From Candidatus Microgenomatus sp. (GTDB lineage Bacteria; Patescibacteriota; Microgenomatia; UBA8517), in contig DYGS01000001.1 in assembly GCA_020724585.1 (NCBI GenBank), positions 422,002 to 486,001 on the forward strand: 64,000 nucleotides of DNA, read 5' to 3'. The notes under the pieces were generated by a model. It made no database searches, was not told the DNA's origin, and worked only from the letters and a program-made list of their open reading frames with translations. Within the stretch, counting starts at the first letter, position 1, and every line of letters begins with the position of its first letter. Shown piece after piece: positions 7,786 to 30,159 of the stretch. A program made the translations under genes and the position numbers.

Positions 7786-9105
7786 TCAAAAACTAACTAT
7801 ACTTCCACTAAAAACATCCCCAATTTTCTCATCTGCTACAAATAAACCTAAATTGATGTCCTCCAGGGACTCCTGATCGGGATGTTTTAGCGTATAAACA
7901 ACCAATCCTGTCCTAAAAGGTTCCAGACTATTTAATGAAATATTTTGGATTTGGATGTTTTTGTTTGGGCCCTTTATTCTCAAGTCGTTTTCATACCAAA
8001 TTGCTTGACCAGTATTTTTGACCAAAACATAGCCTTTTTGTGACCTATTTTTAATCGTAAAAGGATTTAAAAAACTAAAAATAATTTTCCCATTAATTCT
8101 TTGTGTTGGTTTCCCTTCAACCTTTTTTAAATCTTTTATTTCTTGGTAAACTTTATAATAAGTATTTTCATCTTTCTTCCAAGAAAAATGATAGAATGGC
8201 TCGGTTAAATAATTTAGAATAAAAGGGGTAACAGCAACAATTTTATTATCGTTAGCCCAAACATTTTCAAAAGAATACTTAAAATTTTGAGAGATAGTGT
8301 CTTCGCTGTTTTGTTTATAAATCCAGCCCGTTTCTGTTATAAAAACTGGGAGTTCTTTTTTAACCCCCAAAGCAGATAAGTAGTCAAGCTCCCATTTGTA
8401 GCCTTTGATGCTTTTTCTTCCCGTATCTGTTGGCTTGCCCGAAAAGTTAGGATTGGGATACGAGTGTGAATTCCAACCATCAATGTAATTAAATAAATCG
8501 GGCTCTTTTTTAAGCATCCTCTTTAAAAATAGAGCCTCATCCATTGTTTTTGATGAATTTGGCGCAGATTGATCAAAACCCGCATTTAACACAAAGTAGT
8601 CTGAATTAGAATTTTTTAATTTGAGTGAAAACTCTTTTAAGAATGTTGCATATTCTTGAGGATTAATTTCCCCTCCCCATTCTTTAGAGTGGTTAGGTTC
8701 ATTAGCAATTATTATATATCTATTTAAAGTTACCCAGTTAAGAGAGTTTAAAAAAGATATCCAATTATCCATTTCTTCGTATTTTGGCTTTTCCCAATAA
8801 TTTTTGTCTTGATTATATTTTGTTGCTATTCTTAGTATTGGTATAAGTTTATTCCTTCTTAAATTATCAAAAAAATTCTGCAAAACTTCTTTGTCTCTGT
8901 CATTTTCAGTTAATACTATTTTTATATATCCCCATGAGCCATTGTTATTAACGATATCTGAAACATCCTTAAAATCAGATAAATTTACAACACCCATTCC
9001 ATAAATATTGTTGGGCACAGCCAAAGGGTTCGTGATAGCATGTGTCTCAAACGAGAAAATTATAAAAAGAAGAATAGCAATTATGATAATTAAAATTTTT
9101 TTCAT
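7786..9105 (-). CDS. secreted glycoside hydrolase, GH5-like TIM barrel
   Basis: Signal peptide; acid/base motif IIIANEPN and nucleophile motif FITETGW. Confidence 0.5.
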   Translation of the reverse strand: MKKILIIIIAILLFIIFSFETHAITNPLAVPNNIYGMGVVNLSDFKDVSDIVNNNGSWGYIKIVLTENDRDKEVLQNFFDNLRRNKLIPILRIATKYNQDKNYWEKPKYEEMDNWISFLNSLNWVTLNRYIIIANEPNHSKEWGGEINPQEYATFLKEFSLKLKNSNSDYFVLNAGFDQSAPNSSKTMDEALFLKRMLKKEPDLFNYIDGWNSHSYPNPNFSGKPTDTGRKSIKGYKWELDYLSALGVKKELPVFITETGWIYKQNSEDTISQNFKYSFENVWANDNKIVAVTPFILNYLTEPFYHFSWKKDENTYYKVYQEIKDLKKVEGKPTQRINGKIIFSFLNPFTIKNRSQKGYVLVKNTGQAIWYENDLRIKGPNKNIQIQNISLNSLEPFRTGLVVYTLKHPDQESLEDINLGLFVADEKIGDVFSGSIVSF

Positions 9106-10160: not shown

Positions 10161-11258
10161 TTGAATATTTTACCACATTATCTATATTTATTATGCATAT
10201 TTTTAATGAAAAATATCATAAACTCGCCCAATACAAGAGGTCTGATTGCCAAAATTAATCATAAAGGCGGTAGGCTCCCCAAAAAAGTAGCTATTTTGTA
10301 TAGCGATGCCAAAAGAAAATATTTTCCTACATACGAGCAATATTTAACAGAAAAAGAAGCTCGAAATGAAGCAGCGTCTTTTATACCCTATCTTAAAGAA
10401 CTAAATATAAAAACAGTATTGATTCCAGCCGATGCCAACATGGCAGAAAGAATTAAAAAAAGCAGATGTGATCTCGTCATTGATCTTGTTTGCAGCGTAA
10501 GAGGTTGTGAATATTTATCTACGACAGCTCCTGCCACTCTTGAGCTTTTGGAAATTCCTTTTACAGGAGCTTCAATGTTGGGATTTAACATCAGTATGAA
10601 TAAATATTTTACAAGAGAAATATTAGATTTAAATGGAATACCCGTGCCTAAATTTCAACTGTTTACATCTTGGAAACAAGAACTAAACAAGGATATGAAA
10701 TTCCCAATTATTTTAAAACTTAATGAGGCTCATGGATCACTAGAAATTACAAACGAGTCAATTATCAACGACTCAAAGGCTCTTAAAAAAAGGCTTAAAT
10801 ATTTAATGAAAACATACGATATGGATGTTTTGGCGGAAGAATTTATCAAAGGAAGAGAGATCGCGGCTTTTATATTCCAGTCCTATAACAAAAAGGTCTA
10901 TTTAATTGAAAGGGAGTTTGAAGGAGGAGAGAGTAGTTATTTGGATTTTCATACTGTTTGGGAAATTTCAGACGAAAATTATTTCAAAAAAGTAAAATTA
11001 AAAAAATATCACGATCCACTCCTTAACGCTCTGGTTAAGAGGGCTTTTTCTGTGGTTAAAATGGATGATTATGGAAAATTTGATATTCGAATGGATAAGT
11101 ACGGCAAATATTATTTTATAGACAGCAATCCAAATTGTTATTTTGCACCTCCAGAAATGCTTTCAGAAATTACTATGACTATGAAAATGTATGGGGTGCC
11201 TTTTAAACTGCTTCTAAAAAGACTTTTACAAAACACGATGAGGGAATGGGGCTATTAA
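10161..11258 (+). CDS. ATP-grasp enzyme (D-Ala-D-Ala ligase-like)
   Basis: ATP-grasp layout; EEFIKGREIAAFIF resembles the Ddl EEFIxGRE motif. Confidence 0.45.
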   Translation: MNILPHYLYLLCIFLMKNIINSPNTRGLIAKINHKGGRLPKKVAILYSDAKRKYFPTYEQYLTEKEARNEAASFIPYLKELNIKTVLIPADANMAERIKKSRCDLVIDLVCSVRGCEYLSTTAPATLELLEIPFTGASMLGFNISMNKYFTREILDLNGIPVPKFQLFTSWKQELNKDMKFPIILKLNEAHGSLEITNESIINDSKALKKRLKYLMKTYDMDVLAEEFIKGREIAAFIFQSYNKKVYLIEREFEGGESSYLDFHTVWEISDENYFKKVKLKKYHDPLLNALVKRAFSVVKMDDYGKFDIRMDKYGKYYFIDSNPNCYFAPPEMLSEITMTMKMYGVPFKLLLKRLLQNTMREWGY

Positions 11259-17532: not shown

Positions 17533-18579
17533 TTACTTTAAATTTTCTAATTTTTCAATCGTGTAATGAAAAGCACCTTTTATGGCAGAAAGAATGTTTT
17601 TGACTGTTCCCCATGCTGCGACTGAAACTAAAGCTTCTCCAAATACTCCCCCTATTGTTCCAGTAACTACATTTTGTGCAAGCCAGGATTCAATTAGGGG
17701 GGACGAGGCTGCGATTTTGGTAAAAAGAATTATTGGTCCGGCAACAGCTCCACCAACGGCAACGATTGGTACTGTCTTATCTTCCGCCTCATCCATCCAT
17801 TTAGAAAGTCTGTCAACGGGAGCTTGAAGGAAAATAACGGATGCCTCAGCAATGGTAATAATTAGGGGAGTAGTCATGCCTCTAATTTTAGATGTTCTTA
17901 TTTCTCCTTTTACTTTTTCAGCTTTAACAAGAATCTCTCCTCTATTGGCAAGCTCCTGCGCAGTTTTTCCTTTTTCAGAGATGGTTAGTCTATTAAGCCC
18001 CTCTCTCAAAGCAACAAGAGCTGTTTCGGCTTCAATTTCAGCGGATTCACTGGCTATTTCAGAAGCAGAGAGAATTATTGTTGCCAATTCTTTGTGAAAT
18101 CTCAAAAAGTCAAAAAATCCTTGAGGATTAAGTTTACCTTCAGGACTTAAAATAGGCTGGTATTCAGAATTTTCTTCAGAAATATCTTTATATACCTTAA
18201 CAATTGTGGTTTCTTTCCCGAGCATGGCAGAAAATCCCTCGTTGACCATGCCCATTTGCTTCTTAAGATTATCTAATCTTGTCTGATCTGTTTTTATTGA
18301 AGCATCAAGATATTTCTCTTCTATTCCTTCCCTGAAGTAATCAAGAAGAAGCTTTTTGCTCTCGTCATCCCCCCTTACAAGCTGACCCATTAAAACTCTC
18401 AACTGAAGAATCCCTTCGCTTGTTCTTTGAGCTAATGACAAATCATTTTCAATGTTTCCACTCTCTACAATTTCATCTTCAACTGGTCCGACAGGTTCAT
18501 TTGGTCTTTCCTGGGGAACCCCCTGTATTAAACTTTGGAATCTGGTCAATTTTTCGTTCATTAACGCGTGTTTTATCAC
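17533..18579 (-). CDS. hypothetical protein with hydrophobic C-terminal region
   Basis: ORF; C-terminal GxxxG-rich helices. Confidence 0.4.
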   Translation of the reverse strand: MIKHALMNEKLTRFQSLIQGVPQERPNEPVGPVEDEIVESGNIENDLSLAQRTSEGILQLRVLMGQLVRGDDESKKLLLDYFREGIEEKYLDASIKTDQTRLDNLKKQMGMVNEGFSAMLGKETTIVKVYKDISEENSEYQPILSPEGKLNPQGFFDFLRFHKELATIILSASEIASESAEIEAETALVALREGLNRLTISEKGKTAQELANRGEILVKAEKVKGEIRTSKIRGMTTPLIITIAEASVIFLQAPVDRLSKWMDEAEDKTVPIVAVGGAVAGPIILFTKIAASSPLIESWLAQNVVTGTIGGVFGEALVSVAAWGTVKNILSAIKGAFHYTIEKLENLK

Positions 18580-18753
18580 AACCTATAGGCAAAAGTCAAC
18601 AAAAATATTAAAATTGGGAAAAATGACAAACTCATCGGTTTTCATCGGTCAGAAAAAAAGTATACTTTGAAACATGCTTGGGCTAATCAGATGCTATTAA
18701 AATTAAAACAAGAGTAATCTGACATAGCCCAATCTTCCCTTTCACCCATCTCC

Positions 18754-19080
18754 TTGAAAAGGAGAGAGATTGATAATTTGAACACAAAATTAAAAATTCT
18801 TTTAGGCACTTATTTTGATCAAGAAATAGATAGAGAAATATATAGACAAAAGAAGTTTGAACTTGTATCTAAAAGAAAAACAATTGAAGAACAAATTATC
18901 AATTTACAAAACAAGAAAGGGAGTTGGATCGAACCCATGAGGGAATGGATAAATGAAGCTACACAAGTACCTAAAACAGTATCATCCAACAATATGGATG
19001 ATAAAAAGGTTCTCACCAAAAAAATCTTTGGATCGAACCTTTTTTTAGAAAACAAAAAACTCCGAGGGGATGGGCAAAAG
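18754..19080 (+). pseudogene. gene fragment, possibly the C-terminal coiled-coil part of a large serine recombinase (very tentative)
   Basis: Starts at a TTG with no proper N-terminal domain; runs into tRNA-Gly; sequence flavour (WIEPMREWINEA, LENKKL) resembles recombinase C-terminal tails. Confidence 0.2.
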
Positions 19081-19123
19081 TCGTGGTCTTCGCTTCGCTC
19101 GACCTCGACAGATCGGTCATCGG

Positions 19124-19195
19124 AGCGGTGGAGCGGGCTTGAACCGCCGACCTCTTCCTTGGCAAGGAAGCATTCTACCACTGAACTACCACCGC
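19124..19195 (-). tRNA. tRNA-Gly (anticodon GCC)
   Basis: Acceptor GCGGTGG/CCACCGC, anticodon stem-loop CTTCC-TTGCCAA-GGAAG, T-arm GGCGG-TTCAAGC-CCGCT. Confidence 0.8.
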
Positions 19196-19250
19196 AAATT
19201 TCAAATATTCAGTGACCAAGCTTTGCTTACCACTGAACTACCACCGCAAA
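19176..19250. repeat. 23-bp direct repeat of the tRNA-Gly(GCC) 5' end plus 3-nt flank (19176-19198 and 19228-19250) around the spacer AGCAAAGCTTGGTCA...TATTTGAAATT
   Basis: Exact repeat; spacer shared with the tRNA-Leu(UAA) and tRNA-Leu(UAG) loci. Confidence 0.85.
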
Positions 19251-19396
19251 GATTTATTCGAGCAAATACGCAATCGCTCCCATGCTGTGCTGAGAGTTGG
19301 AGTTGCACCAACATCTGGGCTTCTTCAGAGCTCCGCCGTGACTACCTTGGCTATCTCAGCTAACTAAATGTATTATATCAAACTTATATATTTTTG

Positions 19397-19470
19397 TGGA
19401 TCCGGCAGGGATCGAACCTGCGGCCTTACGGATGTAAACCGTACGCTCTGACCAGCTGAGCTACGAATCC
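19397..19470 (-). tRNA. tRNA-Val (anticodon UAC)
   Basis: Acceptor GGATTCG/CGGATCC, anticodon stem-loop TACGG-TTTACAT-CCGTA. Confidence 0.8.
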
Positions 19471-19492
19471 ATATAACCTAACCTATAGTAAG

Positions 19493-19574
19493 TGCGCGGG
19501 ACTGGACTTGAACCAGCAAGGATTTCTCCATACGCACCTCAAGCGTACGCGTCTACCAATTTCGCCACCCGCGC
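19493..19574 (-). tRNA. tRNA-Leu (anticodon GAG), long variable arm
   Basis: Acceptor GCGCGGG/CCCGCGC, anticodon stem-loop TACGC-TTGAGGT-GCGTA. Confidence 0.8.
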
Positions 19575-19622
19575 CCATTTCATTTTATATTATATCTAAT
19601 AATCGATCTATTTGAAACAAAA

Positions 19623-19736
19623 GATGACATCCTCCCCGCCATACTGGCGGGGTATCCGTCTAAACGAGGATGACATATCAGCGTTCAATTCATCCACGGG
19701 CTTATCGCCCGTGGTTTTCTTGAATGCTGTTATAAA
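19623..19736. repeat. 114-bp hairpin-rich element, copy A (intergenic); inverted copy at 26031-26143
   Basis: Reverse complement matches 26031-26143 with 2 mismatches; internal palindromes CCCCGCCATACTGGCGGGG and CCACGGGCTTATCGCCCGTGG. Confidence 0.85.
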
Positions 19737-19746
19737 AATGCAATAT

Positions 19747-19857
19747 CAAAAGACATAAATTATTTTGAAATTAAAAATGCAGACCATAGTTACAGAAATG
19801 AATCAAGAGAGCCTGTTTTTGAAGATGAGATCATAGATATATTTAAGCGATTGTAGC
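19747..19857 (+). pseudogene. 3' fragment (about 110 bp) of an alpha/beta hydrolase gene; direct repeat of 21709-21818
   Basis: About 85% identical to the 3' end of CDS 21228..21818 (first 57 nt nearly identical); encodes ...KDINYFEIKNADHSYRNE... Confidence 0.7.
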
Positions 19858-20312
19858 GGTAACAAGAAAAATAATTTAAGATTTTGCATAGAAACTGCTG
19901 GTATTTCAGGCCTATTTATTAATTGACTTCTATTTTCTAAACAATCTTTAATCATCATTTTTCTGGTTGCAGTCATTTGTGGTGGTAAATTATTGATTTT
20001 GAACCATTTTCCCTCACATCGAGCGTACTCTGTTTTAAATGTTCCGGAAATGTATTTGCCTTCAAAAACATAAGAAGTTATTTTGTTTGAGTTAGAGTTA
20101 GTATATTCTGCAACTTTTCTTACAATCTTGATATGAAAGCCAGTTTCCTCATATGCTTCATGTATGGCTGTGGTTTCGGGAGTTTCATTTTTTTCAATTC
20201 CACCACCTTGAGGTTCCCAAACAGGAAAGTCTGATCTTTTAACTAAAAATACTTCTTTTTGATTATTTCTAGTTAAAACAACAAAAGAACCAACTGGTTT
20301 ATTAAATTTCAT
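19803..20312 (-). CDS. NUDIX hydrolase
   Basis: Nudix box GGGIEKNETPETTAIHEAYEETG. Confidence 0.75.
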   Translation of the reverse strand: MKFNKPVGSFVVLTRNNQKEVFLVKRSDFPVWEPQGGGIEKNETPETTAIHEAYEETGFHIKIVRKVAEYTNSNSNKITSYVFEGKYISGTFKTEYARCEGKWFKINNLPPQMTATRKMMIKDCLENRSQLINRPEIPAVSMQNLKLFFLLPLQSLKYIYDLIFKNRLS

Positions 20313-20706
20313 CTTTAATTTTAATTAAAAAGTTTCTATCTTCATCAACTGCCATTTTGTTAATAGCCTCATCAATATCAAACCAATCGTATTTTTCTTC
20401 CGCTTCTTTGTGGAAATCAGGCTTGTCAGTTTCCATTAGATACATATGAATATCTTTTGAAACAGGTGTTCCATCTCGTTCTGTAGCTATTTTTGAATAA
20501 CTCCCAAGTTTTTTAACTATTTTTAACTCTGTTAGTCCTGTTTCTTCAGTAACTTCTCGTATGGCAGTCTGCTCAAATGTTTCACCATCTTCAACATGAC
20601 CTTTAGGAAAGCCTAGACCTTTTATATGAGTGTAAATTGTTAAAAGAATTTGCTTATTTGGGTTGTTTCTAATTACTACTCCACCTGCTGATATAACTTT
20701 ATTCAT
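20302..20706 (-). CDS. NUDIX hydrolase
   Basis: Nudix box GHVEDGETFEQTAIREVTEETG. Confidence 0.75.
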   Translation of the reverse strand: MNKVISAGGVVIRNNPNKQILLTIYTHIKGLGFPKGHVEDGETFEQTAIREVTEETGLTELKIVKKLGSYSKIATERDGTPVSKDIHMYLMETDKPDFHKEAEEKYDWFDIDEAINKMAVDEDRNFLIKIKDEI

Positions 20707-20720
20707 ATTCTTGTATTATA

Positions 20721-21221
20721 ATGCTTGATATGACAATTAAACAAAATTTAAATTGGAGTGATGGAAAAGTATACAAGCTAGTTTGGCGTGATTGTGACTC
20801 TTTTGAAGAAATAAAAGACAAAAAATTACAGCAAAGTTACGGTGTTTGTTTTTACAAAAACAAACTGGTTATTGGAGGAAATGGTAATAATAAGTGGGGG
20901 TTAATTGGTGGACATATAGAAAATGGAGAAACACCAGAAGAAACTTTGATTAGAGAAGTACAGGAAGAATCAAATATGCGTGTAATAAAACAAATTCCTA
21001 TTGGGTATCAAGAAGTTATAAACCCAGACGGAGCCATTGACTACCAACTTCGCTCATTTTGTTTAGTTGAACCAATTGGACAATTTGTTTCCGATCCTGC
21101 GGGTAGTGTTACAGAAATTAAATTGATTGACCCAAAAGATTACAAAAAGTATTTTGATTGGGGTAAGATTGGAGATAGAATAATGAAAAGAGCAATGGAA
21201 ATTTTAAGAAAGCAAATATAA
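20721..21221 (+). CDS. NUDIX hydrolase
   Basis: Nudix box GGHIENGETPEETLIREVQEESN. Confidence 0.75.
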   Translation: MLDMTIKQNLNWSDGKVYKLVWRDCDSFEEIKDKKLQQSYGVCFYKNKLVIGGNGNNKWGLIGGHIENGETPEETLIREVQEESNMRVIKQIPIGYQEVINPDGAIDYQLRSFCLVEPIGQFVSDPAGSVTEIKLIDPKDYKKYFDWGKIGDRIMKRAMEILRKQI

Positions 21222-21227
21222 CTATAT

Positions 21228-21818
21228 ATGAATATTTCGAGTTTAAAATTTGTTGAAAATAAATCAGATACCTTAGATGTATTACTTCATGGTAGTAAAG
21301 GTGGAATGAATTATTCATTGATGCAAAAGATTGAGGATGTTTGTATAAAGCAAGGTCATTCGGTAGCTAATTTTAACTTCCCATATTTTGAAAGAGGAGA
21401 AGAACAATCTTCAGGACCAGAATTAAAGGAAGAATTAGAAACATTAAAATCAGTTTTAAATGAGTGTAATTCAAAAGAGTATAAGCATACAAGACTAATT
21501 GGAAAATCACTTGGTGCAATTATCGCTAGCTATTATCTAAAATCGTTACAAAAAGAAGAACAATCAAAATATTCTGTAGTAGTTTTTGGATATGTTACAG
21601 GAAGTATTGATTTAAAAAGTTTTGATGGAAAAATAGATATTATTCAAGGTGAGAAAGACAAGTTTGGAAGTATGGAAGTAGTTAAAAATGATTTAAAAAC
21701 GGCAGTTTCAAAAGATATTAATTATTTTGAAATTAAAAATGCAGACCATAGTTACAGAAATGAACTAAAAGAACCTATTTTTGAGGATGAGGCTATAGAA
21801 ATATTTAAAAATATATAA
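21228..21818 (+). CDS. alpha/beta hydrolase
   Basis: GxSxG (GKSLGA) and C-terminal His; the 3' end is duplicated at 19747-19857. Confidence 0.55.
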   Translation: MNISSLKFVENKSDTLDVLLHGSKGGMNYSLMQKIEDVCIKQGHSVANFNFPYFERGEEQSSGPELKEELETLKSVLNECNSKEYKHTRLIGKSLGAIIASYYLKSLQKEEQSKYSVVVFGYVTGSIDLKSFDGKIDIIQGEKDKFGSMEVVKNDLKTAVSKDINYFEIKNADHSYRNELKEPIFEDEAIEIFKNI

Positions 21819-22165
21819 TGGTAAATTCATTAACTTTCATTGGCCAAAAAGTAAATGTAGTAGTTGACAGACCATTAGGATCGAAACATCCAAAACATGG
21901 TTTTACATATGAAGTTAACTATGGCTATATTCCAAACACAAAATCTGCAGATGGAGAAGAACTAGATGCATATATTTTAGGAGTAGATAAACCAATTACA
22001 GAAACTAAAGGAATTTGCGTTGCAGTAATCAGAAGAACAGATGATGACGATGACAAATTAATTGTTACGCAAGATGGCCAAGACTTTTCAGATTCAGAAA
22101 TTGAAAAACTAACAGAATTTCAAGAAAAATGGTTTAAACACATTATCCTTCGAAAGAAGATTTAA
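21818..22165 (+). CDS. short inorganic pyrophosphatase-like protein (tentative)
   Basis: YGYIPNT...DGEELDAYIL resembles the family I PPase core (YGFIPQT...DGDPLDVLV); Asp-rich DDDDD run. Confidence 0.35.
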   Translation: MVNSLTFIGQKVNVVVDRPLGSKHPKHGFTYEVNYGYIPNTKSADGEELDAYILGVDKPITETKGICVAVIRRTDDDDDKLIVTQDGQDFSDSEIEKLTEFQEKWFKHIILRKKI

Positions 22166-22877
22166 TAATTGGCAATTCTACTTCAAAAACTTTTTGGGTG
22201 ATTTTGTGTTCCCATGAGCTATGATTTTGATTTGGCAGTATCATTACTTCTTGGTTTTTATTTTTAACAACATCAACTACTTGGCTTCTTAACTCCTCTG
22301 ATATATACATATCGTTTTCGCCGTACACGAGGTGTATTTTTCCATTATAGTTATTTAAACAGTCAAAAAAGTTAGATTCTTTTGCTTCCTGCCAGAATTT
22401 ATTACTATGTATTTGTCCACCTTCTTCTGCTATCTCATTAGGATTACCATCAAAAGTTGTTTTTGGATCAGGAACCCAGAGAATAATACATGGTATTTTT
22501 CCTTTTAATTCGTTTTTATTTGAAGCTATAACTGTGGTTGTTGCACCCATACTTTGACCAAGAAGAATTACCTTATATCCTAAATCTAAATATTTTTTAG
22601 CAAAGTAGGCAGTTGTATTCACCCATTCATTAAAAGATGAATTTAAAAAATCACCTTCAGAATTACCACAGTTTGGTTGATCAAATCTTAAAGTTGATAT
22701 TCCTTCTTTATTTAAAATTCTACTGAAATCAACAAAAGTTCTCGCTGGTCCAATTGTTGAGCTCCTAAATCCATGATTAAATATTACAATCTGTTTTTTA
22801 TTATCATCAGGTTCAGACAAAACACAAAAAACATTTTTGTTATTAATCTTTTCAAAAAAGACTTTGTCTTTAAACAT
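22143..22877 (-). CDS. alpha/beta hydrolase
   Basis: GxSxG (GQSMGA); HGF oxyanion motif. Confidence 0.55.
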   Translation of the reverse strand: MFKDKVFFEKINNKNVFCVLSEPDDNKKQIVIFNHGFRSSTIGPARTFVDFSRILNKEGISTLRFDQPNCGNSEGDFLNSSFNEWVNTTAYFAKKYLDLGYKVILLGQSMGATTTVIASNKNELKGKIPCIILWVPDPKTTFDGNPNEIAEEGGQIHSNKFWQEAKESNFFDCLNNYNGKIHLVYGENDMYISEELRSQVVDVVKNKNQEVMILPNQNHSSWEHKITQKVFEVELPIIKSSFEG

Positions 22878-23186
22878 TGTTTTAATTATAACTCAAATTG
22901 ATATAAATAAAATTACATTTTCAACTTTTAGAAGCACAAGAACAAGCAAAGAAACAAAAATTTGGAAAACGAGTATTTTAAGATTGTTCAAGAATTGAAC
23001 AATTTCAAGCTTGCTTATGTTATCAGTAAGCGTGAGCTAGGCATAACAAAACACAGTGGGTAAGCGGAAGGCCGAAACGAGCGAAGCGAGTGGATGACTG
23101 GAGCGCACACACGATATGGGTTAGCGAAGCTCCGCGAAGCGGAGCTGAGCGAGCAAACACGAGCTTCGCTACAAAATTAAAAATGG

Positions 23187-23270
23187 TGTCGAAGGAGAGA
23201 TTTGAACTCTCACGCTCGAATGAGCACACGCTCCTGAAGCGTGCCTGTCTACCAATTTCAGCACTTCGAC
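23187..23270 (-). tRNA. tRNA-Leu (anticodon CAG), long variable arm
   Basis: Acceptor GTCGAAG/CTTCGAC, anticodon stem-loop CACGC-TTCAGGA-GCGTG. Confidence 0.8.
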
Positions 23271-23334
23271 AATTTGCCTAATTATACCAAACTTGACTAA
23301 AGATTATTAATATGTCATCCTCATACTAAATGAT

Positions 23335-23955
23335 ATGTATATAACTCAACAAATAGATTTTGAGTCTTCATTCGGGTTTTGGAAAAATATGCTCTTCATG
23401 ATTATCTTCTTCACTGTTGCGCCTATTACCCTATTCATAAGTCTATTTTCACTTATTACTTTTTCGAAAAACGAAAAAGTTGAGCTGGTTCATTCACCAA
23501 CTACGGGTGTTCGTGTATATGCGTCTCTCCCTAGCGAATACCCTTCTATATCAGGCAAAGGTGAAGTATCTGATGCTAGACCCGAGATTATCAGAAACTA
23601 TTTAATTCGCTATAAATCTCCGCTTCTTGGACATGAAAGCTACTTAGTACAAAAGGCAGATGAATATGGTTTGGATTTTAGACTTTTAGTGGCAATTGCT
23701 CAACAAGAATCAAATTTGTGCAAAATTATCCCTGCAAATACTTATAACTGCTGGGGATGGGGAATACATAGCAGGGGAACTCTCGGTTTTGACTCATATA
23801 TAGAAGCAATTGATGCTGTTTCCAAGGGGCTAAAAACAGAATATATTGACAAAGGTTTAACTACTCCCGACACAATATGGAAAAAATATACTCCAGCTTC
23901 TCCTGATGGTGCCTGGGCAAAAGGGGTTAACCAGTTCTTGGCAGAGATGGAATGA
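23335..23955 (+). CDS. membrane-anchored peptidoglycan hydrolase-like protein (lysozyme-like fold)
   Basis: LLVAIAQQESN motif; N-terminal TM helix. Confidence 0.4.
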   Translation: MYITQQIDFESSFGFWKNMLFMIIFFTVAPITLFISLFSLITFSKNEKVELVHSPTTGVRVYASLPSEYPSISGKGEVSDARPEIIRNYLIRYKSPLLGHESYLVQKADEYGLDFRLLVAIAQQESNLCKIIPANTYNCWGWGIHSRGTLGFDSYIEAIDAVSKGLKTEYIDKGLTTPDTIWKKYTPASPDGAWAKGVNQFLAEME

Positions 23956-23978
23956 TTTGATATATAATACTTCTTACT

Positions 23979-24734
23979 ATGCCCGCCGCATACGACAATT
24001 ATGATTACCCATCCTATTGGAAAGGAAGGGAATATGAACACAAGGCTGAGGTGCTTGCTATTAAATCACTTATTTCCAAAATTCCCCATATTAAAAAATG
24101 TGTAGAAATTGGAGCTGGGTTTGCAAGGCTTTTGCCGGCTTATATCTTTAGGGCTAAATCTATAACTTTAACCGACCCATCTTCAAAACTTCTTTCAATT
24201 GCCAGAAAAAAATATAAACAAAATAAAAAAATTGAATTTACGCAAGCAAGTCTTGAGACTTTTTCTTCCACCACAACGAACAAATATGATCTATGCATAA
24301 TGGTCAGAGTCCTGCATCATATCCCAGACATAGATGAGGCACTGGATTGCGTTTATAAAATACTTCAAAAAAACGGCTACTTGATTCTGGAGTTTGCCAA
24401 CAAAAACAATCTAAAAGCTAGTATCAGACAATTTTTAAGGGGAAATTTCACTTATCCCATTGATATATTTCCCATCGATATTAGAAGTAAGAAAAACATC
24501 AAAAAAAATACTCTCCCTTTTGTTAATTTCCACCCTGATTTGATAAAAGAAAAATTAAAAATGAAAGGTTTTGAAATAATTGAAACACGGTCAGTATCAA
24601 ATATAAGATCAAGTTTTATTAAAAAACTTTTTCCAATGAATTTTTTGCTGGATCTGGAAAAAATACTACAGGTGCCACTTAGTAATATAAATTTTGGTCC
24701 TTCAATTTTTATACTTGCCAAAAAGACGGATTAA
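23979..24734 (+). CDS. class I SAM-dependent methyltransferase
   Basis: Motif I VEIGAGFARLL. Confidence 0.6.
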   Translation: MPAAYDNYDYPSYWKGREYEHKAEVLAIKSLISKIPHIKKCVEIGAGFARLLPAYIFRAKSITLTDPSSKLLSIARKKYKQNKKIEFTQASLETFSSTTTNKYDLCIMVRVLHHIPDIDEALDCVYKILQKNGYLILEFANKNNLKASIRQFLRGNFTYPIDIFPIDIRSKKNIKKNTLPFVNFHPDLIKEKLKMKGFEIIETRSVSNIRSSFIKKLFPMNFLLDLEKILQVPLSNINFGPSIFILAKKTD

Positions 24735-24910
24735 GTGATCACCATTTATAAACTTGACAAACCTATAGTCATATGCTATATTACCACTACATTCTGAGGC
24801 TGCTTTGATAATTATCAATGCCGGCGTTAGGATTTTACAGGTCCCGTCTACATGACGGGACTTTTTTTTCTAAATTTCTAGTATAATGTAAATTGATGCC
24901 GGAGTGGTTT

Positions 24911-24985
24911 AACAAGTCGGAGTGGCGAAATTGGTAAGCAAAGCTTGGCCAATTTCTTTAACAAGTCGGAGTGGCGAAATTGGTA
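24911..24985. repeat. 26-bp direct repeat of the tRNA-Leu(UAG) 5' end plus 5-nt flank (24911-24936 and 24960-24985) around the spacer AGCAAAGCTTGGCCAATTTCTTT
   Basis: Exact repeat. Confidence 0.85.
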
Positions 24986-25046
24986 GACGCGCAGGATTTA
25001 GGATCCTGTGGAGTAATCCTTGCAGGTTCGATTCCTGTCTCCGACA
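24965..25046 (+). tRNA. tRNA-Leu (anticodon UAG), long variable arm
   Basis: Acceptor GTCGGAG/CTCCGAC, anticodon stem-loop CAGGA-TTTAGGA-TCCTG. Confidence 0.8.
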
Positions 25047-25182
25047 CTTAAAGATTATGCAATTAATTCACAAACTTACAAGAAAAGAGAGAGATGTATT
25101 GTCAGTTTTTTTGATGTTTATACCCATTGTCATCTTTTTTAGTGTACTTGCATTATTTTTAATAATTGTTTAATATCTAATT

Positions 25183-25704
25183 ATGAGAAAACTAATTGCA
25201 GTTTTGATACTTAGCTTTCTAGTTTTTAACTTCAGTTCTTCTGTTTTAGCTCAATCTCCCAGCCCCAAATCACGCCAAACAGAAAAACGAGTTGAGAAAA
25301 TGGAAGAGGTAGGGGATAGATTTAGTGCAGTAAGAAGAGAAAGAATCGCCAATTTTTCAAATAGAATGGTTATAAAACTTGAAGCCTTGATTGAGAGGCT
25401 GGAAAAACTTATAGAAAGAATTGAAACACGAATTAAGAAAATTGAAGAGTCTAATTCTGATATTAATTTAACCGATGCAAAGGAGGACCTTGCATTAGCC
25501 AAAAAAGACTTAGAAGATACTAAGGCAGAGTTCACAGCACTTAAAGGTAAACTTGATGAAATTATAAATGAAGACAATCCAAAAGAAGCGTTTAAGCAGG
25601 TTCGCGTTCAATTCAGACTAGTTATGGAGAATCTACGCGGCGTTCACGCTAATCTAGTTAAATTGATTGGCGACATTAAAGGTTTAAGAGTAGGAAATAA
25701 ATAA
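25183..25704 (+). CDS. secreted coiled-coil protein
   Basis: Signal peptide; heptad-rich sequence. Confidence 0.45.
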   Translation: MRKLIAVLILSFLVFNFSSSVLAQSPSPKSRQTEKRVEKMEEVGDRFSAVRRERIANFSNRMVIKLEALIERLEKLIERIETRIKKIEESNSDINLTDAKEDLALAKKDLEDTKAEFTALKGKLDEIINEDNPKEAFKQVRVQFRLVMENLRGVHANLVKLIGDIKGLRVGNK

Positions 25705-25706
25705 AT

Positions 25707-25946
25707 ATGAAAAATAGGGCTGTTGTTGCACTACTTGCGATTTTGGTAATAATTATAGGTGTTTTAGCTTTCGTTATATCTGATTATGATTTTAGTCAAA
25801 CAAAAAAGTATAGAAATGAGTTAACAAAAATTGAAAGTACTTCTGAGTCTGATGAAATTGAGGATATTGAAAATGACTTAAATTCTACTAGTTTTGAAAA
25901 CATCGACTCTGAGCTTAATAGTCTTGAAGGTGAACTCTCTTACTAA
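25707..25946 (+). CDS. small membrane protein with acidic C-terminus
   Basis: One TM helix; translationally coupled to its neighbours. Confidence 0.4.
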   Translation: MKNRAVVALLAILVIIIGVLAFVISDYDFSQTKKYRNELTKIESTSESDEIEDIENDLNSTSFENIDSELNSLEGELSY

Positions 25947-26522
25947 ATGTTTAAGTCAATTTTAGCCCCCATTATTGGTGTTATATTGTTTATTGTTTTC
26001 GTCGGTCTTTTATATCAAGGCAAAATGCCGTTTATAACAGCATTCAAGAAAACCACGGGCGATAAGCCCGTGGATGAATTGAACGCTGATATGTCATCCT
26101 CGTTTAGACGGATACCCCGCCAGTATGGCAGGGAGGATGTCATTAATAATAATCAAAAGTCAGTTACTATAAACAACAAAGAAATTAAAGTAGAAGTCGC
26201 CAAAACAAATGAAGAAAGGGCAAAGGGCTTATCAGGTAGAGACTCTCTTGAAGCAGATTCAGGCATGCTCTTCATTTTTAATAATCAAAAGCCTATTTTT
26301 TGGATGAAAGATACAAAAGTCGCACTCGATATCATCTGGATTAACGATTTAAAAATTGTCGGGATTAATAAAGATGTCCAACCGGAGCCTGGCGTTTCGG
26401 AAGATAAATTAAAAAAGTATCCCGCCCCAGAAGAAATCGATTTAGTTTTAGAAGTTAGCGCAGGTTACTCAGACAAAAATAATATCAAAGTAGGTGACAA
26501 TGTAGAGCTTAATAATATCTAA
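25947..26522 (+). CDS. DUF192-family protein with an in-frame 114-bp repeat-element insertion in the linker
   Basis: DUF192-like core (GLSGRDSL...DSGMLFIF...FWMKDTKVALDIIWIN); residues encoded by 26031-26143 come from repeat copy B. Confidence 0.5.
   Translation: MFKSILAPIIGVILFIVFVGLLYQGKMPFITAFKKTTGDKPVDELNADMSSSFRRIPRQYGREDVINNNQKSVTINNKEIKVEVAKTNEERAKGLSGRDSLEADSGMLFIFNNQKPIFWMKDTKVALDIIWINDLKIVGINKDVQPEPGVSEDKLKKYPAPEEIDLVLEVSAGYSDKNNIKVGDNVELNNI
26031..26143. repeat. 114-bp hairpin-rich element, copy B (inside a CDS, in frame)
   Basis: Reverse complement of 19623-19736. Confidence 0.85.
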
Positions 26523-26523
26523 T

Positions 26524-27732
26524 TTATTTACCAAAGGCTATTCTATCTTTAATTAGATCATTTGTATTTGCCATTCTTGCAGGATAAATTGTATGTTCAC
26601 CAAATCTATTATTAATGCTATCTAAACTTTTATTTAGTTTGTCTTTTTTAACAATATCTTCAAAAACTTCAAGTTGAAGATTACTTTTGTCTTTAAGTCC
26701 AAATGTTGATATGGCTATATTTCTAAAATCATTTTTAATAGGACTTAAATTAAGTAACCTACTTATCTCAAAATATAAGTCATTAGAATCAAATATTTCT
26801 TTTTGAGTTTTTCTTCCCATATGCCAAGAATTATTACTTCTATCTTGAACATATAAATGAACCCCTGTTGCTTTTAAATTACTATTTCTAAGTCTCAAAC
26901 CTGTTTTTTGTACTAATTTAGTTATAATTTCTTTATACTTATTGCTATCACTTTTGGCTATAGCATATGAGTTACCATATGTTTTTTGTGGAGCTTGTGA
27001 ATAACTATCATCAACATCATAACCCCTTAAATTTAAAAACCAATAATAGCCATTTATGCCTCCAAAGGCTATTTTTAATTTAGATAGGGAAGAACTGTAA
27101 AAATCTAAAACTGTTTTAATACCTACTAAGTTTAGTCTTCTGCTATTACCTTCTTTGATACCAGTTAAATCAGTTAATTTAAGGCCGCCAAAGACATCTA
27201 GGAAGTTATCTTTGTCTATAACACTTAATCCATCAGGCTTTTTTAAATTACTTGCAATTTTGGCCAAATATTTATTTGTTGATATACCTATTGAAACAGT
27301 AATATATTCACCAATTTCTTTTTTAATTTTTTCTTTAATTTCAAGACCGACCTTTAAAGGTGTAACCCTTAAAGGTTCTCGAATTTTGAGTTTTAGTACA
27401 AACTCATCAATTGACTTAGGCAAAAGTGAACTTGAATATTTACTTAATATCTTTTTTATTTTTTTATGTACGCATCTATATTTATTAGGATCAGGCAAAA
27501 GAGTAATAATATCAGGAACTAATTTTTTAGCATCAATTAATCTCCTTCCTGTTTTTACTCCAAACTTTTTAGCAGAATATGAAGCTGCAAGAATACAACC
27601 ACTAGGATTGAGATAACTACAAACTGCAACAGGCCTATCTCTTAAAAAGGGATTAGCCTGTTGCTCTATAGTTGCAAAACAAGAATTAACATCAAGATGA
27701 ATTATATTTGGTATGCTTTGATTAAACTGCAT
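26524..27732 (-). CDS. dinB: Y-family DNA polymerase IV
   Basis: N-terminal HLDVNSCFATIEQ...RDRPVAV...AASYSAKKFGVKTG typical of ImpB/DinB. Confidence 0.75.
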   Translation of the reverse strand: MQFNQSIPNIIHLDVNSCFATIEQQANPFLRDRPVAVCSYLNPSGCILAASYSAKKFGVKTGRRLIDAKKLVPDIITLLPDPNKYRCVHKKIKKILSKYSSSLLPKSIDEFVLKLKIREPLRVTPLKVGLEIKEKIKKEIGEYITVSIGISTNKYLAKIASNLKKPDGLSVIDKDNFLDVFGGLKLTDLTGIKEGNSRRLNLVGIKTVLDFYSSSLSKLKIAFGGINGYYWFLNLRGYDVDDSYSQAPQKTYGNSYAIAKSDSNKYKEIITKLVQKTGLRLRNSNLKATGVHLYVQDRSNNSWHMGRKTQKEIFDSNDLYFEISRLLNLSPIKNDFRNIAISTFGLKDKSNLQLEVFEDIVKKDKLNKSLDSINNRFGEHTIYPARMANTNDLIKDRIAFGK

Positions 27733-27893
27733 ATAGAGATAATTGACAAGATTTGCTATAATACGCTTACTTGAAAAGTTTCCTTTGGGAAATTTCTTTT
27801 TAAGAGATAGAGTCAGCCAACCGTAGCCTCTAAACTATGCTTAAGTTGGGTTGCTAGGTCCAGACAGCCTAGCCCTTTAGATATATAGAAACT

Positions 27894-28130
27894 TTAATTT
27901 TTTTCATATATTTCCTCCAATTTCCATTGTAAATGCTTTGTATCTAATTGCAATTTCAAAAATAGACTATCTGAAACCACTGAAAAAACATGGTATAGGA
28001 TGTTTCCATTCTTAAAAGTATGATGAAGCCCTAATTTTTTAATTTCTATTTCTCTTCCTCTCCATTTAACAAGCTTTGGATATTTTTCAAAAACTACATC
28101 TACTACTTCGGATATTGTTAGTGCACTCAT
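27894..28130 (-). CDS. small hypothetical protein
   Basis: ORF. Confidence 0.35.
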   Translation of the reverse strand: MSALTISEVVDVVFEKYPKLVKWRGREIEIKKLGLHHTFKNGNILYHVFSVVSDSLFLKLQLDTKHLQWKLEEIYEKN

Positions 28131-28175
28131 AATTCATGTTAGTACCAAACAATCACCAAAGTCAATAAGTAAATA

Positions 28176-28658
28176 TTAAAGATTATGGTTAAAGTCTTCG
28201 TAATATGGATAATTATGGTCTGAGGATTCTTTTGGAATAACTTTTCCAAATTCTTTAACATCTTCAAATGTTCCGTGTGGGTCATTAATATTTTGAATAA
28301 TTGTTATCTTGTTTTTATAAAGACTGCAAACTTCTTTTATCTTGTCAAAATCCTCTTTGCTTATATCCCTTACTGGTACTCCGCAAAGGATTATTTTTGT
28401 TACTTGATCAGGAATTAAGGAAATTAGATTACAAGCAACAAGTGTTCCAATTGATTTGGCAATAATTCTTACATTATCATCTTTTAAATGTTTAACAATT
28501 AATTCTGCTTTTTCTTTTGGATCAAATCTAGAACTTTCATCACTCCAATGCATCCAATAAAAAGGTCTAATTATTCCATCCAGTTTTAAATTATTTGTAA
28601 CCTCATCAACCCAACTTTTGTTTATACTTGAGTATCCTGGTAGGATTAATGTTTGCAT
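28176..28658 (-). CDS. alpha/beta hydrolase-fold esterase (YdeN/RBBP9-like)
   Basis: ILPGYSS...W N-terminus; KSIG nucleophile elbow. Confidence 0.35.
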   Translation of the reverse strand: MQTLILPGYSSINKSWVDEVTNNLKLDGIIRPFYWMHWSDESSRFDPKEKAELIVKHLKDDNVRIIAKSIGTLVACNLISLIPDQVTKIILCGVPVRDISKEDFDKIKEVCSLYKNKITIIQNINDPHGTFEDVKEFGKVIPKESSDHNYPYYEDFNHNL

Positions 28659-29665
28659 ACCAATTATTATATAATATCTTTATGTACAAGAAACTATTAA
28701 TTACTATTTCTTCATTCTTAATTTTTACTCTTGGTTGGTTTCTTTCTGATAATTACAAAAGATTTTTAAATCCTGATACAAGTTTGCCATCATGGAACAA
28801 ACCAAAACCCTTGGAAAAATACACAATTGAAAATTTAAGAAACAAAAATTTTGAGGTATCTAATATTAAAATTGTAGATACTAATTTATTTGAATATAGC
28901 GTTGAAGGCAAAAAAGTTACTGGGTGTCTTAATATTCCTAAAGAAAAAGGTAGTTATCCATTAGCCATATTGGTTCGAGGCTATGTTGACCAAAAAGAGT
29001 ATAAAACATGTGACGGAAGTAAAAAAATTGGTGAGTATCTATCTAATAATGGATATATCACATTATCACCAGACTTTTTAGGCTATGGCGGATCTGATAA
29101 AGAAACGAATAATATTTTTGAATCAAGATTTCAAACATACGTAACACTAATTACATTAATTGAATCAATTAAAAATTCTAATACTAATAAAGTATTAATA
29201 GATGAAGGTTGGGATGGCAATAATATTTTCATCTGGGCACACAGCAACGGAGGTCAAATTGTATTAACAGCACTTACAATAAAAAATTATAACTATCCTA
29301 CAGTTTTGTGGGCACCTGTTGTTGAAAGTTTTCCATATAATGTTCTTTATTTTACAAATGAAGCTGAAGACAAGGGAAAGTTTATAAGACAAGAACTAGC
29401 AAAATTTGAAAAAGATTATGATACAGACAAATATTCATTCACAAACTACCTTGAAAGTATAAATGCTCCAATTGAACTACATTTAGGAACAAATGACGAT
29501 GCCATACCTCTTGAATGGGCAAATAGATTTGTTAAAAGTATGCAAAAACTTGATAAACCTATTAAATACTATAAACACCCCAATCTTGATCATAATATGA
29601 TGCCTAATTGGAGTGATATAGCACAAAAAACCTTACAGTTTTTTGATATAAACCTTAAACCATAA
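28628..29665 (+). CDS. membrane-anchored alpha/beta hydrolase (S9/dienelactone hydrolase-like)
   Basis: GxSxG-type elbow WAHSNGG; C-terminal HPNLDH. Confidence 0.45.
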   Translation: MSILVGLMFAYQLLYNIFMYKKLLITISSFLIFTLGWFLSDNYKRFLNPDTSLPSWNKPKPLEKYTIENLRNKNFEVSNIKIVDTNLFEYSVEGKKVTGCLNIPKEKGSYPLAILVRGYVDQKEYKTCDGSKKIGEYLSNNGYITLSPDFLGYGGSDKETNNIFESRFQTYVTLITLIESIKNSNTNKVLIDEGWDGNNIFIWAHSNGGQIVLTALTIKNYNYPTVLWAPVVESFPYNVLYFTNEAEDKGKFIRQELAKFEKDYDTDKYSFTNYLESINAPIELHLGTNDDAIPLEWANRFVKSMQKLDKPIKYYKHPNLDHNMMPNWSDIAQKTLQFFDINLKP

Positions 29666-29668
29666 AAC

Positions 29669-29920
29669 TTAACGGTTTTCTTGAGGCTTTGCCATGTTTA
29701 CATTCATAGCTCGACCATTAAGATCTTTACCGTTAGCTTCTAATGCTTTTTGAGCTTGTTCTTCTGTTTCCATTTCGACAAAACCGAATCCTCTTGACCT
29801 TCCGGTCATTCTATCCATTAGAACAACTGCGTCAACAACTGTACCGTATGCAGCAAAAAATGCTCTTAGGTCATCAGAAGTTGTAGCCCATGCTAAATTA
29901 CCAACAAACAATTTCTTCAT
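29669..29920 (-). CDS. RRM-type RNA-binding protein
   Basis: RNP-2 LFVGNL and RNP-1 RGFGFVEM. Confidence 0.75.
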   Translation of the reverse strand: MKKLFVGNLAWATTSDDLRAFFAAYGTVVDAVVLMDRMTGRSRGFGFVEMETEEQAQKALEANGKDLNGRAMNVNMAKPQENR

Positions 29921-30159
29921 AAATTATTAAAAATTAGTTTTTCACCTCTTTTCTAGGAGCCGACCTTGGGGACACTAACCTTACAGAGGGCAAATGTAGT
30001 ATAATACTATTATGGATAAAAAGCAAAAGCCAAAAGCGATAAAAACTGCAAAGCCGCCTACCAGCTTTCCCTTTGTGCGCAAAATTACTTATGGTACAAA
30101 CAAGGGCTTTGCTGTAAACTCTCCCCAATTTAGAATTAATCAACACAAGGGGGCATAGC

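Follow-up and report, generated by a model that had tools for sequence, protein, structure and literature searches.

An inverted 113-nt repeat in a Microgenomates genome as two probable insertions of a gene-less, IS200/IS605-derived element

What is the 113-nt sequence that occurs twice, in inverted orientation, in a 64-kb stretch of the genome of Candidatus Microgenomatus sp., and how did it come to lie on either side of a segment of NUDIX, hydrolase and tRNA genes? The whole 64-kb stretch is called the window here, and all coordinates refer to it. We argue that the unit very probably consists of a 108-nt non-autonomous member of the IS200/IS605 family, of the kind called palindrome-associated transposable elements (PATEs), together with a 5-nt target motif, and that the two copies go back to two separate insertions. 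We show that both copies belong to a mobile family with a fixed target site, no target duplication and a conserved structure, that its members insert in frame into genes, and that related elements bearing a transposase are present in the same lineage. A Y1 transposase acting on single-stranded DNA would be the agent that moves the family, and some copies may still be moving. PATEs as a kind of element are already known; as far as the literature showed, the family of the Microgenomates is an undescribed one, and no description of such repeats in the candidate phyla radiation (CPR) or Patescibacteria turned up in the searchable literature.

Two copies and a remnant in the window

A repeat search of the window returned two inverted arms at 19624-19736 (copy A) and 26031-26143 (copy B), which are 113 nt long, 99% complementary and separated by 6294 nt. 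When the unit was compared with the window by blastn, the second copy was recovered with E=5.8e-54, and identity stops sharply on both sides, exactly at the element plus its target motif (TAM). The initial annotation of this stretch had described a 114-bp pair with two mismatches. Within the 113 nt there is a single mismatch, C19637 against A26130 (+ strand), and position 19623 is the second mismatch over 114 nt. Both internal palindromes that it had pointed out are present (CCCCGCCATACTGGCGGGG at 19634-19652 and CCACGGGCTTATCGCCCGTGG at 19694-19714), and the genes between the arms are as it listed them, namely three NUDIX genes, Abhydrolase_11, a pyrophosphatase-like gene, an alpha/beta hydrolase, tRNA-Leu(cag) and tRNA-Leu(tag). 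Its repeat pair stood, and two things had been overlooked: copy B lies in frame inside a DUF192 open reading frame (ORF) at 25947-26522, and there is a third copy, degenerate and partial, at 3393-3441 on the minus strand (blastn 81% over 48 nt, E=3e-6; nhmmer E=1e-4). An nhmmer scan across the window with the family profile found no copies besides A, B and this remnant. The unit is G+C-rich, the nearby window having roughly 31-38% G+C, and the plus strand of copy A folds far better than shuffled sequences (z = -8.2; for the minus strand, z = -6.2), forming two long stem-loops.

The transposon top strand of copy A is the window minus strand, with the right end on the 19624 side and the left end on the 19731 side; the top strand of copy B is the window plus strand. 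The features are:

19624-19731, minus strand: copy A, 108-nt inserted segment (repeat arm; boundary rule from filled and empty sites; nhmmer E=4.8e-31 against the family profile)
19732-19736, minus strand: target motif (TAM) TTTAT of copy A, ATAAA on the + strand, adjoining the left end (sequence, empty-site rule, flank statistics)
19634-19652, minus strand: right-end hairpin of copy A, CCCCGCC-ATAC-TGGCGGGG read on the + strand, 10 nt from the right boundary (fold, covariation)
19694-19714, minus strand: left-end hairpin of copy A, CCACGGGC-TTAT-CGCCCGTGG on the + strand, 17 nt from the left boundary (fold, covariation)
19737-19846, plus strand: decayed remnant, the 3' end of a paralogue of the hydrolase gene 21228-21818, host of copy A (direct repeat D1, 86% identity)
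26031-26035, plus strand: target motif (TAM) TTTAT of copy B, within the DUF192 coding sequence (sequence; empty-site rule)
26036-26143, plus strand: copy B, 108-nt insert of 36 codons ending in GTCAT, in frame in the DUF192 ORF (repeat arm, blastn, nhmmer)
26053-26073, plus strand: left-end hairpin of copy B
26115-26133, plus strand: right-end hairpin of copy B, in which A26130, the one difference from copy A, weakens one pair (sequence, blastn)
25947-26522, plus strand: DUF192 host gene of copy B (Pfam DUF192 E=1.6e-28; alignment of 13 homologues)
3393-3441, minus strand: degenerate third copy, central box and left-end hairpin region only

The repeat is 113 nt long because 108 nt of element are joined to 5 nt of target, both window copies standing at TTTAT. 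The insert has no coding capacity: its left end is fused to its right end, and the consensus holds no ORF of its own.

The host gene of copy B encodes a membrane helix (aa 1-26), then the insertion, and then the DUF192 domain (aa 80-187). Thirteen DUF192 homologues of about 50-64% identity keep the N-terminal helix and lack roughly 28 residues at the insert point. Deleting 26036-26143 in silico leaves an intact ORF of 155 aa, a length within the homologue range, and the empty site would read CCGTTTAT/TAATAATAAT (a slash marks an element boundary or insertion point here and below). The public annotations of this gene differ: JGI gives 191 aa with the anchor, and NCBI (P0002) gives 165 aa starting at M27, just before the element, with the anchor lost. 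The two disagree because of the insertion of copy B.

The intergenic region that separates the NUDIX operon from the tRNA cluster holds copy A, with a promoter-like site (TTCAAA-16-TATAAT, minus strand) just downstream of the copy, ahead of the tRNA cluster. On the plus strand the left-end hairpin of copy A is followed by TTTTCTT, which gives it a terminator-like look. We considered copy A as the mark of an element-mediated deletion, as the hydrolase homology seemed to end at the element, and dropped the idea: after excision of copy A in silico, the homology resumes and extends about 22 nt further left, at lower identity, so that a simple insertion into a decayed gene remnant suffices.

A mobile family with a fixed target and paired hairpins

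We scanned public collections with the central 20-mer ATGACATATCAGCRTTCAAT, which is common to the full copies and the degenerate copy. It was found in more than 120 metagenome stretches among the matches listed and in 48 stretches from 23 species-representative genomes; among these loci (numbered with L), L154 (genome) and L042 (metagenome) are chance matches of the 20-mer. Nearly all hosts are Candidatus Woesebacteria, Shapirobacteria, Blackburnbacteria, Microgenomates, unclassified Patescibacteria, or metagenome-assembled genomes (MAGs) mislabelled as other taxa, and the samples come from aquifers, groundwater wells and lakes. A scan of viral contigs (IMG/VR) with a left-end 19-mer gave 12 matches, all of them unrelated coding sequence devoid of hairpins, and the element was not found there. 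The initial annotation had kept a one-off duplication in reserve for the case of no further copies and no read pairs in favour of inversion; these numbers overturn it. Its suggestion of a small mobile repeat that inserted twice is borne out by the many related copies in Microgenomates, by empty orthologous sites and by the unrelated flanks of the two window copies.

Both ends are present in 157 elements, which represent 99 distinct sequences in 133 distinct flank contexts; 82 distinct sequences, of 100 nt or more, count as full-length. Three single MAGs have at least 10, 8 and 5 copies, and the commonest element sequence is identical at 22 loci. There are also short derivatives of about 80 nt that lack the first hairpin, and a few copies with small internal insertions. 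In the orientation of the plus strand of copy A, the consensus is ATGACATCCTCC-[hairpin 1]-GT(A/T)TCC-CTCCAAAGGAGG-ATGACATATCAGCGTTCAATTCATC-[hairpin 2]-T(G/T)TTCTTGAATGCTGTTATAA, where only the central block is biased by the 20-mer used as search pattern. The blocks outside the hairpins are nearly invariant, and the hairpin sequences are free to vary yet stay paired. Pairing is kept in 96.6% of cells, as against 84.6% in column shuffles and 36-45% with slid partners. Double-sided changes number 267 where 71 are expected, and every pair in both hairpins covaries. In a subfamily at L019 (about 10300-10430, minus strand) and L047 (about 7800-7940, minus strand), the left-end outer stem CAGTTTCAA...TTGAAATCTG replaces CAGCGTTCAA...TTGAATGCTG, and these compensatory changes suggest that the outer stem is structurally constrained as well.

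Mobility is seen in the empty sites. When the joined flanks of each copy were searched against the other loci, four near-identical pairs of filled and empty sites were obtained (L051 vs L099/L048, L014 vs L036, L088 vs L035 and L158 vs L112), besides weaker pairs. In all four, a net 108 nt have been added immediately 3' of TTAT (top strand), with no target duplication: the filled site reads TTAT/AACAGC...GGATGTCAT/NN and the empty site TTAT/NN. Over 133 sites the base preceding TTAT is T in 64% and A in 25%, and the opposite flank is variable. Insertion with a TA duplication, as in IS630-type elements, was tried as an explanation and rejected, as it is incompatible with the empty site of L014 vs L036.

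The geometry of the ends is asymmetric. Along the top strand, a spacer of 17 nt separates the left boundary from the left hairpin 3' of it, and one of 10 nt separates the right hairpin from the right boundary 3' of it; IS608 has similar spacings, about 10 nt on the right and about 19 nt on the left. The termini show a weak inverted match (TTATGACA vs TTATAACA, 7/8), which falls short of good terminal inverted repeats. Just 5' of the left hairpin stands the tetranucleotide AANA, facing a target TTAT, and just 5' of the right hairpin stands GA(T/A)A, facing a terminal TCAT. At position 4 of these putative guide and cleavage sequences the combinations are compensatory across three data points: T/A in IS608, A/T in the PATE and G/C in the IS element of transposase P0220, described below.

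Relative to the local genes, the top strand points the same way at 70 sites and the opposite way at 34 (binomial p about 5e-4, the sites not being independent), and both window copies side with the majority. This bias would fit insertion into the lagging-strand template. Gene orientation in the window changes from minus to plus near 20.7 kb, between the copies, and the cumulative GC skew passes through shallow minima (about 18-20 kb and about 28-30 kb) and then rises. The region from about 18000 to 30000 could be a replication origin region, in which case the top strands of both copies would lie on the lagging-strand template.

At about one eighth of the sites a long ORF, in one orientation or the other, runs straight through the element. 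Pfam domains are recognised on both sides of the insert in TsaD (split in two), D-Tyr-tRNA deacylase (Dtd, also split), BacA/UppP, a P-type ATPase (with the insert in the HAD domain), Mur ligase (between the middle and C-terminal domains) and Fmt (methionyl-tRNA formyltransferase). In each orientation the consensus leaves exactly one frame open. The top-strand frame is open in 62 of the 82 distinct full-length elements, as against 33% of shuffles, and the net length is a multiple of 3 in 54 of the 99 distinct elements. As the TAM TTTAT and the transposon-end motif (TEM) GTCAT share AT, an ATG that overlaps the target (TTTAT/G) is rebuilt as GGAGGATGTCAT/G, which stands at a gene start at 10 sites. 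On the other strand a TATAAT is rebuilt as TGTTATAAT, and several loci have an ATG 6 nt downstream or a tRNA gene after it.

What we find most interesting is that, in genomes of very small size, the family settles in core genes in frame: widespread among the Microgenomates of groundwater and lakes, it enters TsaD, Fmt, Dtd, UppP and Mur ligase with the frame kept. In-frame insertion may account for some of the lineage-specific protein insertions, and repeats of 113 nt are a likely cause of contig breaks and chimeric joins in CPR metagenome assemblies. It is conceivable to go further and to see the family as harmless by design and as a generator of protein and regulatory novelty in CPR, with transcribed copies that could be guide RNAs for a TnpB/IscB-type nuclease in trans; we would give this extended view a small chance. 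If it were true, the 108-nt length and an open frame per orientation would permit a 36-residue insert in essential genes, and a struck ATG or TATAAT would be rebuilt, the element supplying a GGAGGA box or a TGn motif. As for the guides, the right end resembles HgcC/omega-RNA scaffolds, and transcribed copies could therefore serve as guide RNAs with guides derived from the flank.

Some loci have unusual arrangements. At L108 (about 60-160) a right end abuts a left end (GGATGTCAT/AACAGCATTC) with no TTAT between them, an arrangement that is tandem or resembles a circle junction. Tandem mini-derivatives at L064 (about 4380-4500) retain only the left-end outer stem and stand beside a GCGAAGCTTGC palindrome. 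L020 combines the left flank of L047 with the right flank of L045, and L185 and L186 exchange the flanks of an IS200 element. These swaps reflect either recombination at the repeats or chimeric metagenome assemblies.

Which explanation fits the element

We looked for an element that could mobilise the family. A tblastn search for Y1 transposases with the TnpA of L112 and with an approximate IS608 TnpA sequence brought up one, that of L112. L112 carries a Y1_Tnp gene (Pfam E=3.7e-38) at 3290-3709 on the minus strand, 330 nt from a PATE copy. This gene belongs to an IS200-type element that is nested in an IS481-like integrase-core transposase gene (region 2353-3930), and we rejected the element as the PATE parent, as its ends differ and it sits inside the other transposase gene. 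A homology search with the L112 TnpA returned 904 proteins, among them P0220, which NCBI lists as the IS200/IS605 transposase of a Candidatus Woesebacteria bacterium. The ends of the P0220 element (L184-L189) are defined by at least two contexts. Its left end reads TTTAT/TCTTCCTTTGCAGAAAA-CCCCAGTTTT-TTAA-AACTGGGG-ATGAATGGCAGCGG, followed by tnpA, and its right end, after tnpA, reads GATG-CTCCGGCT-TTTA-AGCCGGAG-AGATTGTTCAC/, while the PATE right end finishes in AGGATGTCAT. One insertion of this element interrupts a dehydroquinate synthase gene at GACTTTAT/TCAC. A second element, that of P0198 (L190-L194), likewise present in at least two contexts, has the left end TTTAT/TAAAAGTCGAGAATA-hairpin-ATGAATCGAC and a right hairpin, CCACGGGC-TTTA-GCCCGTGG, whose stem is identical to that of the left-end hairpin of the window copies. 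The family HMM matches the left ends of the P0220 and P0198 elements on the top strand with E 0.002-0.03.

These IS200-type elements of Woesebacteria and CPR share with the PATE the TAM TTTAT, a left spacer of 15-17 nt ending in AA(A/T)A, a GATGAAT box that follows the left hairpin, 8-bp hairpins whose loops are of TTTA/TTAA type and a similar right end. They differ in carrying a Y1 transposase of 133-138 aa, in their other spacer and internal sequences and, for P0220, in a TEM of TTCAC instead of GTCAT. To judge from these sequences, the Microgenomates harbour active IS200-type elements with the target, spacing, putative AA(A/T)A guide and GATGAAT box of the PATE and a right end similar to its own. 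We class the family as a PATE because its target rule, geometry and putative guide pattern match IS608, because relatives with a Y1 transposase exist and because there are weak matches to HgcC.

By analogy with IS608 and ISGst, a Y1 (HUH) TnpA supplied in trans would bind the two subterminal hairpins on the single-stranded top strand and would locate the cleavage sites through the short guide tetranucleotides just 5' of each hairpin. The top strand would leave as a circle and would be pasted 3' of TTTAT in single-stranded DNA, a step that would create no target duplication. Copy A would have inserted at TTTAT in the dead hydrolase gene remnant, upstream of the promoter-like site before the tRNA cluster, and copy B would have inserted independently at TTTAT in the DUF192 linker, adding 36 codons while the frame stayed open.

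Several observations weigh against this interpretation. No autonomous element with identical ends was found: the IS200-type relatives share architecture and motifs, not full ends, and a search for left or right ends standing unpaired, as would border a full-length parent, brought up only short or variant derivatives in about 1.1 Mb of loci. No Y1 transposase was detected within the 64-kb window. Hairpin sequence varies widely from copy to copy, even inside a single MAG, which would be unusual if a single TnpA must recognise them all. The matches to HgcC fall below the Rfam threshold, and the guide and cleavage pairing would follow the IS608 pattern by analogy. The orientation bias is explained equally well by selection against the terminator-like hairpin and TTTTCTT, which are on the bottom strand only.

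The alternative that survives best is a structured non-coding RNA gene of HgcC/omega-RNA type, or a portable cis-regulatory module (terminator, promoter or ribosome-binding site), kept by the host with mobility as a secondary trait; we hold its chance of being correct to be small. In its favour are the strong covariation and, on the bottom strand, a conserved G-U pair. A weak similarity to HgcC points the same way: at gathering thresholds Rfam finds only tRNAs in the window and no curated family covers the element, and HgcC (RF00062) is the sole family to respond, always on the top strand and over the full model, with 21.8 bits in the window and 20-31 bits (20.4-31.2) in 7 of the 12 other loci that were tested, all short of its gathering score of 50. 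We read these matches as a distant resemblance of right ends that, from sequence, would not amount to membership. A regulatory cassette would also suit the terminator-like hairpin followed by TTTTCTT, the right end GGAGGATGTCAT/G, where a Shine-Dalgarno-like box plus ATG abuts the gene start at the 10 sites mentioned above, and the left end, which regenerates TGTTATAAT with an ATG 6 nt downstream in several loci. A benefit to the host is on record in Halobacterium, where PATE RNA and sotRNA improved growth (PMC4615843). However, copies lie within unrelated coding sequences in both orientations, and orthologous sites exist that lack the element. DNA hairpins bound by TnpA predict equal covariation, and the healing of ATG and -10 sequences follows automatically from the AT common to the TAM TTTAT and the TEM GTCAT.

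It is very unlikely that the pair is an invertible switch, that is, a recombination substrate that flips the 6.3-kb NUDIX/hydrolase/tRNA segment. The arms, 113 bp at 99% identity and inverted, are long enough for homologous recombination. We obtained no positive evidence of inversion: the JGI contigs Ga0246236_1000003 and _1000115 carry the copies with the window flanks, both in the window arrangement. Inversion would split the DUF192 gene and part its membrane anchor from the domain, two ordinary insertions explain the flanks, and no site-specific recombinase was seen beside the pair, though none was looked for. As a separate observation, the JGI assembly, which stems from the same population, breaks within the pyrophosphatase-like gene 21818-22165, away from both copies, _1000003 starting near 21903 and _1000115 ending near 22064.

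A classical MITE (miniature inverted-repeat transposable element), that is, a deletion derivative of a DDE-transposase insertion sequence (e.g. IS630/Tc1-like) moved by cut and paste, with terminal inverted repeats and a duplication of TA or another target, is hardly tenable. The element is small, gene-less, multi-copy and hairpin-rich, and its termini have the weak inverted similarity of 7/8. These traits agree with the MITE-like character proposed in the initial annotation, which did not hold: the empty sites show no duplication, and a TA duplication clashes with L014 vs L036; the motif is fixed at one flank only, the other flank being free; and the ends are asymmetric, with 17 nt and 10 nt to the hairpins. 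With no target-site duplication, a weak terminal inverted repeat and insertion 3' of TTTAT, PATE is the better label. A one-off local duplication or an assembly artefact, which the presence of just two full copies in the 64-kb window might suggest, has practically no probability left in view of hundreds of copies across independent assemblies and studies and of an identity that ends exactly at the element plus TAM.

Apart from the PATE, we noticed a second tiny repeat with the core AGCAAAGCTTGG, which follows a ...GGTA or ...TA site and has 29 matches in about 1.1 Mb of loci plus the window. In the window it is found at tRNA-Leu(tag) 24908-24985, tRNA-Gly(gcc) 19176-19250 (minus strand) and tRNA-Leu(taa) at about 3190-3240 (minus strand). 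Each of these three tRNAs is preceded by a duplicate of its own first 20-29 nt (to the D-loop GGTA), the AGCAAAGCTTGG repeat and bases complementary to the D arm, and then follows intact. At L112 (about 4195-4245) and L143 (about 4500-4560), a version of 28-29 nt interrupts a tRNA D-loop, and at L170 (about 100-190) the repeat lies within the loop of a PATE hairpin. Its behaviour would suit either a further micro mobile element or an intron-like insert, with GGTA as the target.

Comparison with known systems

For the transposon field, the family offers a compact natural PATE that targets TTTAT and has candidate cognate Y1 transposases. In behaviour it recalls the Rickettsia palindromic elements, which are reportedly about 100-150 nt long, lie in frame in protein genes and are tolerated as an extra peptide. 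Both insert in frame into genes of a bacterium with a reduced genome. There is no sequence relationship between the two, and for the PATE a target motif and a mechanism of IS200/IS605 type can be proposed. REP sequences and REPINs with their RAYT transposases are likewise hairpin repeats tied to IS200 Y1 transposases, a REPIN consisting of two inverted REP hairpins with a head of GTAG type. The PATE, in contrast, has two different ends in one orientation and a TAM/TEM pair. The REP/REPIN-RAYT systems are mentioned in PMC4615843.

The resemblance to HgcC concerns GAUGA..UGAAC and a CCCCGC-UUUA-GCGGGG hairpin followed by AGGAnGUCA, with an 8-bp stem and a UUUA/UUCA tetraloop. HgcC is archaeal, however, and the PATE scores below its gathering threshold. 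Gomes-Filho et al. showed that HgcC holds a tetraloop structure resembling a right end (8-bp stem, UUCA/UUUA loop), which is also found in the right ends of IS1341-type tnpB elements and in PATE-derived RNA (PMC4615843).

With IS608 and ISGst-type elements, the PATE shares insertion 3' of a tetra- or pentanucleotide, and it has putative guide tetranucleotides 5' of each hairpin. In IS608 the left guide (GL) AAAG goes with the left cleavage site (CL) TTAC, and the right guide (GR) GAAT with the right cleavage site (CR) TCAA (PMC5934647), and the relation of guide to cleavage site is alike in the PATE, position by position. ISGst2 of Geobacillus stearothermophilus has the same TAM, TTTAT, and a reported TEM of TTCAC, and gene-less PATE-like derivatives accompany these elements (PMC10055086). 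Unlike IS608 and the ISGst-type elements, the PATE lacks tnpA and tnpB and has a left spacer of 17 nt.

The closest counterparts in kind are the PATEs of haloarchaea (PMC4615843) and the PATE-like elements of Geobacillus stearothermophilus (PMC10055086), which are fused ends of IS200/IS605 elements. Like them, the Microgenomates element is gene-less and about 100 nt long, has a left-end and a right-end hairpin and no inverted termini, causes no target duplication and has a fixed motif at its left flank only. It differs from them in its host lineage, the CPR, in its end sequences, in its many in-frame insertions in conserved genes, and in a consensus that keeps one open reading frame in each orientation.

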